From positions 1-4,015 of IMG/VR virus record IMGVR_UViG_3300029518_000091: 4,015 bases of DNA. The stretch is one strand, 5' to 3'. Shown here one piece after another: positions 1,566-1,912 of this stretch (positions are counted from its first letter, which is position 1; the number at the start of each line of letters is the position of its first letter). The position numbers were made by a program, and so were the translations under genes. The notes under the pieces are model-generated. The model was not told the origin of the DNA. It did not search any database and saw nothing but the letters and a program-made list of their open reading frames with translations. This DNA is from a virus. Its lineage: Duplodnaviria > Heunggongvirae > Uroviricota > Caudoviricetes.

Positions 1566-1892
1566 TCAGGGTGCAGAAGGACTAAAGATAAACGTTTTCT
1601 TCACGCCTTTACACGGCCTGTCCTTCTCAAATCGCCATTTTGCCATCGCCTTTACAACCTGCTCATCAAACAGATGGTGCGGCTCTGAACGAATAAACTC
1701 AATTCGGGTGACAGTACCATCAGCACCAATATCAAACCTCACATCAACCCGTCCCTTTATATAATTTGCCGCTGCATAGGCCGGATATTGTGGTAATGCC
1801 TTAACCAACTGTCGGGGCATATCTGTTTTATGTTGCGTACAGCCCATAACCAGAGAAGACAACAAAATAATTAACGGAAGATTTCTTTTCAT
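1566..1892 (-). CDS. Lipoprotein with TonB C-terminal-like domain (prophage moron in the position lambda uses for bor)
   Basis: Track ORF 1566..1907 begins at GTG(1907) with no SD. The in-frame ATG at 1892 has GGGGA 6 nt upstream and gives MKRNLPLIILLSSLVMGC-TQHK...: charged n-region, hydrophobic core, lipobox-like LVMG-C, Thr at +2. The mature part, ALPQYPAYAAANYIKGRVDVRFDIGADGTVTRIEFIRSEPHHLFDEQVVKAMAKWRFEKDRP, matches the TonB C-terminal domain pattern (compare E. coli TonB PQYPARAQALRIEGQVKVKFDV..DGRV.NVQILSAKP..FEREVKNAMRRWRYEP). Alternative starts are 1898 (ATG) and 1907 (GTG). Confidence 0.75.
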   Translation of the reverse strand: MKRNLPLIILLSSLVMGCTQHKTDMPRQLVKALPQYPAYAAANYIKGRVDVRFDIGADGTVTRIEFIRSEPHHLFDEQVVKAMAKWRFEKDRPCKGVKKTFIFSPSAP

Positions 1893-1912
1893 TTTCATTC
1901 CCCGCACAGATA

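Follow-up and report, generated by a model that had tools for sequence, protein, structure and literature searches.

The 4,015-nt stretch of DNA analyzed here (positions 1 to 4,015 of the IMG/VR virus record IMGVR_UViG_3300029518_000091, Caudoviricetes; hereafter, the window) is the late region of a lambdoid prophage. Its major genes all lie on the minus strand, as judged from gene calls, Pfam, and RefSeq, and it is 94–99% identical to prophages of E. coli and to Stx-converting phages. Downstream of the lysis genes and upstream of the terminase gene, the window contains a gene whose 108-amino acid product is probably a small lipoprotein, anchored in the outer membrane and made up, beyond its signal peptide and a short tether, of a domain homologous to TonB's own C-terminal domain. 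The coordinates of this gene, its parts, and its neighbors are collected in Table 1.

The open reading frame (ORF) of this gene spans positions 1566–1907 of the minus strand and encodes 113 amino acids when counted from a GTG codon at 1907, the start assumed in a preliminary description of this DNA. That start had to be abandoned, and translation almost certainly begins at the ATG at 1892 (MKRNLPL...), because this codon is the one used by RefSeq (WP_000828072.1) and is unchanged in 80 of 80 near-identical viral contigs, among which the alternatives are lost. An upstream ATG (1898) reads ATA in 6 of these contigs, and the GTG at 1907 is altered in several of them. The contigs are the best 80 of a viral profile scan made with a 6-sequence alignment, and all represent near-identical loci.

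Within the window-type clade that these contigs represent, 22 nucleotide alleles encode 9 proteins, and the codon variants comprise 19 synonymous and 7 non-synonymous ones. When the window allele was compared with the allele of phage 21 (71% identical), the proportion of differing synonymous sites (pS) was 0.67, which is near saturation, the proportion of differing non-synonymous sites (pN) was 0.17, and the ratio of non-synonymous to synonymous substitution (dN/dS) was 0.11. Based on this ratio, the 19 versus 7 codon variants, and an ORF that is intact in 80 of 80 contigs, we conclude that the gene is real and under purifying selection and that it is neither a chance ORF nor a decaying fragment. 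Alleles of the phage 21 type in public data often have frameshifted C termini (for example, ...SGSEETIYLYAVTSLMLPGREG) or N-terminal truncations (database matches P0010, P0012, P0013, P0018, P0019, and P0021), which indicates that the gene is decaying in some cryptic prophages, though intact alleles stay under purifying selection. A 69%-identical fragment of the enterobacterial prophage gene was also found on a 418-bp contig labeled as the actinobacterium Modestobacter excelsi (L013); this fragment is most likely assembly contamination.

The proposal, made in the preliminary description, that the protein carries a domain like TonB's C-terminal one was confirmed by several searches. The Pfam family TonB_C (PF03544) matched with an E value of 9.7e-15 (55.2 bits, cut-off 24.6), TIGR01352 matched with 55.2 bits (cut-off 27.1), and TonB chains in the PDB matched at E~1e-15, with a gapless alignment to residues 153–231 of E. 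coli TonB. The identity to genuine enterobacterial TonB C-terminal domains is 36–41%, and Pfam gave nothing beyond TonB_C and TonB_2 at E≤0.1. In an AlphaFold2 model of the protein alone, made with 17 homologues, the pLDDT is >96 across the domain and the N-terminal tether is disordered. The top Foldseek matches of this model are TonB C-terminal domains, namely 2gsk_B (TonB bound to BtuB; root mean square deviation (rmsd) 1.1 Å, TM score 0.92), 1u07 (E=3.8e-8), and 2grx_C (TonB bound to FhuA), so the predicted fold, a sheet of three strands with two helices packed on it, agrees with the earlier proposal as well. The BFVD library of viral structures yielded no significant TonB-fold match.

The protein also retains individual residues that characterize this domain. 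The P-x-Y-P stretch (P161, Y163, and P164 of TonB) is present, with its YP at Y36-P37, as are the five aromatic residues that we take, from the TonB literature, to be the conserved ones: F180, F202, W213, Y215, and F230 of TonB correspond to F52, F75, W86, F88, and F103, respectively. In an alignment of 17 sequences, Y36, F75, and W86 never vary, and P37 and F103 are nearly invariant (≥90%). The β3 strand is present in the model, and its equivalent of F230 is conserved.

This similarity ends with the C-terminal domain. Models of full-length TonB (NCBIfam PRK10819) scored 49–74 bits against cut-offs of 265–448 and were matched only at their C-terminal ~80 positions. The N terminus of the phage protein is a lipoprotein signal, and the protein has neither a transmembrane anchor nor a proline-rich spacer. 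We therefore ruled out that it is a full-length TonB energy transducer; it cannot transduce energy, because it lacks both a membrane anchor to ExbB/ExbD and the proline-rich spacer.

The lipoprotein signal consists of the peptide MKRNLPLIILLSSLVMG, with a basic N-region (K2 and R3), followed by a lipobox LVMG-C (IILLSS-LV-M-G-C18) with Thr at position +2. It satisfies the PROSITE rule PS51257, which was applied as a lipobox, a Cys at position 15–35, and a basic N-region. The lipobox Cys is retained by all full-length homologues, down to about 33% identity, in E. coli, Klebsiella, Raoultella, Serratia, Sodalis, and metagenomes. The residue at +2 is T, S, or A in all family members and is never Asp, the residue that at this position acts as an inner-membrane retention signal. 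From these features we infer that the protein is lipidated and sorted to the outer membrane. The preliminary description had made both points, and the rules read from the sequence agree with them. It had also described a single TonB C-terminal domain on a linker of ~10 residues, and this arrangement stands with a slightly shorter tether: 7–8 residues separate the predicted lipidated Cys from the domain, whose first residue aligned to TonB is P26 (TonB P153). The mean pLDDT of residues 11–20 is 52, and the first strand of the model begins at residue 28.

Table 1. Features of the window and, in the last three rows, related genes on other contigs
Feature	Position	Strand	Basis or remark
Terminase small subunit, cut by window end	1-536	-	Pfam, RefSeq
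HNH endonuclease	827-1192	-	Pfam, RefSeq
DUF3950 (YlcI/YnfO) gene, convergent	1234-1434	+	Pfam, RefSeq
Cassette of ~650 bp (TonB_C gene and ~150 bp upstream)	1389-2041		Replaced in collinear Stx2 phages
TonB_C lipoprotein coding sequence, 108 amino acids	1566-1892	-	WP_000828072.1; Pfam, PDB, TIGR01352 matches
TonB_C domain, residues 26-104 (= E. coli TonB 153-231), β3 = residues 94-103	1581-1817	-	Pfam, PDB alignment, AlphaFold2, Foldseek
Tether TQHKTDM	1818-1838	-	AlphaFold2 model: low confidence, no secondary structure
Predicted signal peptide and codon of lipobox Cys18 (codon at 1839-1841)	1839-1892	-	PROSITE PS51257 pattern
Perfect 8-1-8 palindrome overlapping -10-like hexamer	1913-1929		Sequence
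Promoter-like site ATGACC-16-TAGAAT with TG extended -10	1925-1952	-	Consensus match only
Rz i-spanin	2231-2698	-	PF03245, E=1.7e-49
Rz1 o-spanin, embedded in Rz	2293-2478	-	PF06085, E=3.7e-21
Endolysin (phage lysozyme)	2997-3530	-	PF00959, E=1.3e-23
DUF1327/YdfR gene	3581-3925	-	
Holin, 3' end	from about 3929	-	
Serratia grimesii relative	L014, 7992-8318		Context ycgM-ycgN-[gene]-dsbB-nhaB
Raoultella relative	L006, 8001-8333		Context lacZ-lacI...[gene]-DUF1440; Klebsiella species likewise
Stand-alone single-TonB_C lipoprotein	L025, 6001-6402		Among housekeeping genes

The phage gene is one branch of an uncharacterized family, as judged from sequence comparisons. An exhaustive HMMER search identified further short lipoproteins with a single TonB_C domain, and several of these are encoded in ordinary chromosomal neighborhoods unrelated to phages, including those of Serratia grimesii and Raoultella (Table 1). 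Relatives on metagenomic contigs adjoin genes for ahpCF, glutathione S-transferase, or Usp and an acetyltransferase. No transporter gene was linked to any family member examined. The members have motifs of their own (Y-A-x-A-N after YP, S-E-P-x-H-L-F-D, and a basic start of β3), and they are 41–51% identical to each other across genera compared with 36–41% to genuine TonB, which argues against a recent capture of the host tonB gene.

In every phage examined for its position (E. coli prophages, phage 21, PhiR47_2, a Klebsiella phage whose protein is 41% identical, and a Sodalis prophage), the gene follows the lysis cassette, precedes the terminase gene, and is co-oriented with the late operon; in the window, its distance to Rz is 338 bp. 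The preliminary description had placed it in the slot of lambda bor. It does occupy the same variable interval, from Rz to cos and the terminase, that carries the lipoprotein gene bor/iss in lambda-like phages. Unlike bor/iss, it is on the late-gene strand and has no homology to Bor, and it coexists with bor/iss rather than replacing it: phage 21, PhiR47_2, and the UTI89 prophage each have a separate bor/iss on the opposite strand between Rz and the TonB-domain gene. An identity as Bor/Iss was thus ruled out, since the Pfam search also gave no match to the Bor family. In phage 21 (OL657228.1, 21967–25416), the TonB-domain paralogue is accompanied by iss/bor and by a full set of sitABCD genes for an Fe/Mn ABC importer; this importer works independently of TonB and could compensate for a TonB block in phage 21 lysogens. 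In UTI89 (L024, 19227–19520), a TonB-domain gene of the phage 21 type is found with iss/bor; the region covered there ends at J.

Genes of this kind are very common and already annotated, so the gene is known as an object. The window-type allele is present in 417 of 5426 complete E. coli genomes and the phage 21-type allele in 1225 of the same 5426 (23%), UTI89 included. Carriers include Stx1a-converting phages, classic phage 21, and the uropathogen UTI89, and relatives are encoded on 214 IMG/VR contigs. Existing labels are "TonB family protein" (RefSeq), "TonB C-terminal domain protein" (phage 21), and "partial tonB-like membrane protein ... CP-933N". A literature search turned up no work on the function of any TonB-domain protein that is phage-encoded or a lipoprotein, and the family has no match in the PADLOC defense catalogue. 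Among PHROGs, only 1267 and 34172 matched; PHROG 1267 is labeled "Rz-like spanin" in the category lysis, a label that was most likely assigned from gene position and that will spread to phage annotations from PHROG-based pipelines.

The gene and ~150 bp upstream of it form a cassette that is swapped for unrelated DNA in the otherwise collinear Stx2a phage Stx2_EH2201. The G+C fraction of this cassette is 0.43–0.46, compared with 0.52–0.57 in its flanks. A moron, an autonomous accessory cassette of a phage late region, is marked by presence or absence between collinear phages together with a deviant base composition, both of which the cassette shows, and also by a promoter and terminator of its own for expression in the lysogen, for which the window offers one promoter-like site and no terminator-like site. 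We conclude that, within the late region of lambdoid prophages, the gene constitutes a mobile cassette.

The gene start is preceded, 33 nt upstream, by a promoter-like site. Its extended -10 element (TGTTAGAAT) is invariant in the 80 contigs, and its -35 element is variable. A perfect palindrome, AGAATAAG-T-CTTATTCT, overlaps the -10-like hexamer; it is kept in 74 of the 80 close relatives, but phage 21 lacks the second half. This palindrome could be an operator, or it could be nothing. It coincides in part with a match of 13 of 19 positions to the Fur-box consensus (1909–1927). Regulation of the gene by Fur is a weak lead: about 3% of shuffled versions of the 338-bp spacer score ≥13/19, the window has two further matches at 13/19, and one half-site is gone in phage 21. 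Within the window, no terminator-like site was found between Rz and the gene or after the gene, and the region downstream of the gene folds no better than shuffled sequences (z=-0.03). Given the late-operon orientation and no detectable terminator on either side, the gene may or may not be a lysogenic-conversion gene: its product could be made in lysogens from the promoter-like site, late in lytic growth by read-through from pR', or both.

Several observations concern the neighboring parts of the window. The HNH endonuclease gene is directly upstream of that for the terminase small subunit on the minus strand. An HNH gene beside a terminase small subunit gene is the typical layout of HK97-like cos phages, in which the HNH protein is required for cos cleavage. 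Several PADLOC nuclease models match the window HNH protein weakly, below their thresholds. Between the endolysin and Rz genes, inside the late operon, there is a strong terminator-like hairpin on the minus strand (2874–2906; 13 pairs followed by a T-rich tail). The spacer between these two genes is low in G+C, includes a tiny ORF resembling a membrane protein (2700–2786; hypothetical in RefSeq), and varies among related prophages; positions 2715–2756 have no counterpart in the related prophage L002. An Rfam scan of the window gave a single sub-threshold chance match.

What the protein does may follow from what it shares with TonB and what it lacks. At a little short of an even chance, in our estimate, it acts as a decoy: an outer membrane-tethered, energy-uncoupled TonB domain that competes with TonB at the TonB boxes of transporters. 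A complete, "unplugged" C-terminal domain would be displayed on a tether of ~8 residues at the outer membrane and would dock onto the TonB boxes of TonB-dependent transporters by β-strand addition to β3, as TonB does; the TonB boxes of incoming colicins might be bound too. Competition with the scarce real TonB would then lower TonB-dependent traffic, including the irreversible adsorption of T1/phi80-type phages, the entry of group B colicins, microcins, and albomycin, and the uptake of siderophores. We regard this hypothesis as attractive, given good support from structure and precedent, and it is consistent with everything that could be tested here. It is supported by the identity and completeness of the domain, with its TonB_C fold, signature residues, and retained interface elements, by the absence of the other parts of TonB in a protein with a lipobox, by the precedents described below, and by the selection on a real gene that resides on a mobile cassette.

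Known interactions of TonB show how such a domain could engage a transporter. Disulfide cross-linking has placed the TonB region around Q160 and the P-x-Y-P stretch in contact with the TonB box. The TonB box of FhuA pairs in parallel with β3 of TonB (review PMC11658791). Domains of TonB that are cut off from the motor have also been found to interfere with the system as dominant-negative constructs. According to one preprint, which cites earlier work on this point, a periplasmically exported TonB domain (residues 33–239) abolishes ferrichrome transport and leads to iron-deficient growth, and this fragment as well as the truncations 103–239 and 122–239 inhibit Ton system activity (bioRxiv 10.1101/2020.01.05.895219). 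The phage protein is like these exported fragments in having the C-terminal region without the connection to the motor, and it resembles a natural, membrane-tethered version of them. As described there, the fragments differ from it in their solubility, greater length (starting at residue 33, 103, or 122), and overexpression, and they might titrate ExbD, which a domain tethered to the outer membrane probably cannot reach.

Another precedent is provided by small phage lipoproteins. Llp of phage T5 is a lipoprotein of the inner leaflet of the outer membrane that binds the periplasmic face of FhuA at a site partly occluded by TonB, and its acylation favors the complex because both partners are then restricted to two dimensions (bioRxiv 10.64898/2026.03.26.714494). 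For a phage lipoprotein of the inner leaflet, the periplasmic side of a TonB-dependent transporter is thus accessible. Llp and its prophage counterpart Cor are like the protein studied here in being small phage lipoproteins; they act on a TonB-dependent transporter from the periplasm and block phages, colicin M, and ferrichrome. They are, however, unrelated to it in sequence and fold (Pfam, PHROG, and Foldseek), are specific for FhuA, exert an allosteric effect on its extracellular loops, and extend their block to phage T5, which does not depend on TonB. A mimic of TonB, unlike Llp or Cor, would be expected to affect many transporters but to leave T5 unhindered, blocking only those steps that need energy.

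The closest comparison is with the TonB C-terminal domain itself (residues ~150–239 of the E. coli protein; 1U07, 2GSK, and 2GRX). The two share homology over the whole domain, a β-α-β-β-α-β fold with an rmsd of 1.1–1.3 Å in the model, the YP motif, the conserved aromatic residues, and the β3 strand. The phage protein differs in having a lipoprotein signal instead of the transmembrane helix and the proline-rich spacer, so that it is predicted to reside at the opposite membrane, uncoupled from ExbBD. It also lacks the last ~8 residues of TonB, and Q160, R166, and the first half of β3 are substituted.

A wider form of the decoy hypothesis is that the protein inhibits the TonB gate in general, by competition, and so provides widespread, receptor-independent exclusion, unlike the receptor-specific Cor and Llp, and also modulates the uptake of siderophores and of siderophore-antibiotics, a reading that we consider doubtful. 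The gene was found with at least three types of the receptor-binding protein J (the window type, the phage 21 type with 63% identity, and the Perceval type with 40%). This distribution points to a receptor-independent, general activity, an argument that is weakened by mosaicism. Self-receptor exclusion, in which the gene would be tied to one J type, was rejected, since three J types carry it.

Several points weigh against a decoy TonB. Residues of TonB implicated in receptor contact are substituted (Q160 by L, R158 by K, and R166 by Y), and β3 reads KKTFIF compared with VVNILF in TonB, so the partner could be something other than TonB boxes. Chromosomal relatives beside housekeeping genes suggest a physiological role that is not necessarily directed against phages. 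A constitutive TonB blocker should be costly, yet a paralogous allele is present in 23% of complete E. coli genomes, including that of UTI89, and this uropathogen relies on TonB for its lifestyle. That the protein binds TonB boxes, and the phenotype that would result, are what we infer from homology and precedent.

Other explanations of the gene differ in when its product would act and on what. A function late in the lytic cycle, rather than in lysogenic conversion, would have the product made from the Q-antiterminated late transcript and acting in the last minutes of infection, when it might shut TonB-dependent entry of rival phages and colicins, alter receptors on debris, or aid envelope disruption, as the spanin view of PHROGs would have it. 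The gene is always downstream of and co-oriented with the lysis cassette and upstream of the terminase gene in E. coli, Klebsiella, and Sodalis prophages, no terminator-like site separates it from Rz or follows it, and PHROG 1267 assigns it to lysis, all of which would suit such a role. It is nevertheless unlikely, considering that the window already has a complete Rz/Rz1 pair, that the gene is 338 bp from Rz and collinear phages lyse without it, that it has its own invariant extended -10-like element, and that its chromosomal relatives have no lysis neighbors. The specific designation as a spanin is probably a wrong label. The protein is like the spanins in being a lipoprotein encoded beside the lysis cassette, but a globular TonB fold without a C-terminal transmembrane segment fits neither o-spanins nor unimolecular spanins, there is no Pro-rich, Rz1-like sequence, and the C terminus is polar (...KKTFIFSPSAP). 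We therefore rejected this candidate, given also the Rz and Rz1 genes of the window itself and the absence of the TonB_C gene from collinear phages.

The existence of homologous single-domain lipoproteins in housekeeping contexts (Serratia, Raoultella, and metagenomic contigs) would agree with a modulator of the host's own TonB-dependent transport or signaling, borrowed from the chromosomal family and not primarily directed against phages. It might throttle the import of iron or B12 or FecA-type signaling, perhaps under the control of iron, and so affect the fitness or virulence of the lysogen. The occurrence of the gene with iss/bor in prophages of the phage 21/UTI89 type, the sitABCD genes of phage 21 as a possible offset to a TonB block, and the Fur-box-like palindrome over the -10-like element also fit this explanation. 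We think it rather improbable, because the Fur-like match is weak for the reasons given above and none of the family members examined is linked to a transporter gene. Quite unlikely, in our judgment, is that the TonB-like fold binds another partner, such as peptidoglycan, an envelope protein, or a phage component, and that its likeness to TonB reflects structural ancestry only. The family does have motifs that differ from those of TonB, and diverged TonB-fold partners exist, as shown by FusB, which binds ferredoxin directly (PDB 9hi3); however, a protein of diverged function would be expected to resemble genuine TonB less closely than this one does (36–41% identity and E~1e-15 across the whole domain), and the P-x-Y-P aligned with TonB 161–164, beside Q160, is retained. 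That the gene is a functionless passenger, a captured tonB-like fragment drifting in prophages, is highly improbable. The old "partial tonB-like" labels and the many frameshifted or truncated variants in the protein database are what such a fragment would leave behind, but they stand against a dN/dS of 0.11 with synonymous sites nearly saturated, the excess of synonymous over non-synonymous variants with all 80 ORFs intact, and a lipobox kept to about 33% identity.

If the decoy hypothesis is wrong, what remains is an accessory gene that was already annotated. The gene is known; what would be new is a phage lipoprotein that acts on TonB-dependent transporters by mimicking TonB itself. If this hypothesis is true, it would represent a new principle of exclusion, in which the coupling domain of the host is copied and a whole class of transporters is cut from its energy source, in contrast to one bespoke inhibitor of a single receptor. 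In its wider form, the protein would protect against TonB-dependent phages, group B colicins, and microcins, and the uptake of siderophores and siderophore-antibiotics would be modulated in as many as about 30% of complete E. coli genomes. Given how common the gene is, the protein could influence host range in phage therapy, the ecology of colicins and microcins, iron acquisition, and susceptibility to siderophore-conjugated antibiotics. The analysis also flags an uncharacterized chromosomal family of TonB-domain lipoproteins in Gammaproteobacteria, whose members, if a general inhibition of the TonB gate holds, would be endogenous "brakes" on TonB-dependent transport.

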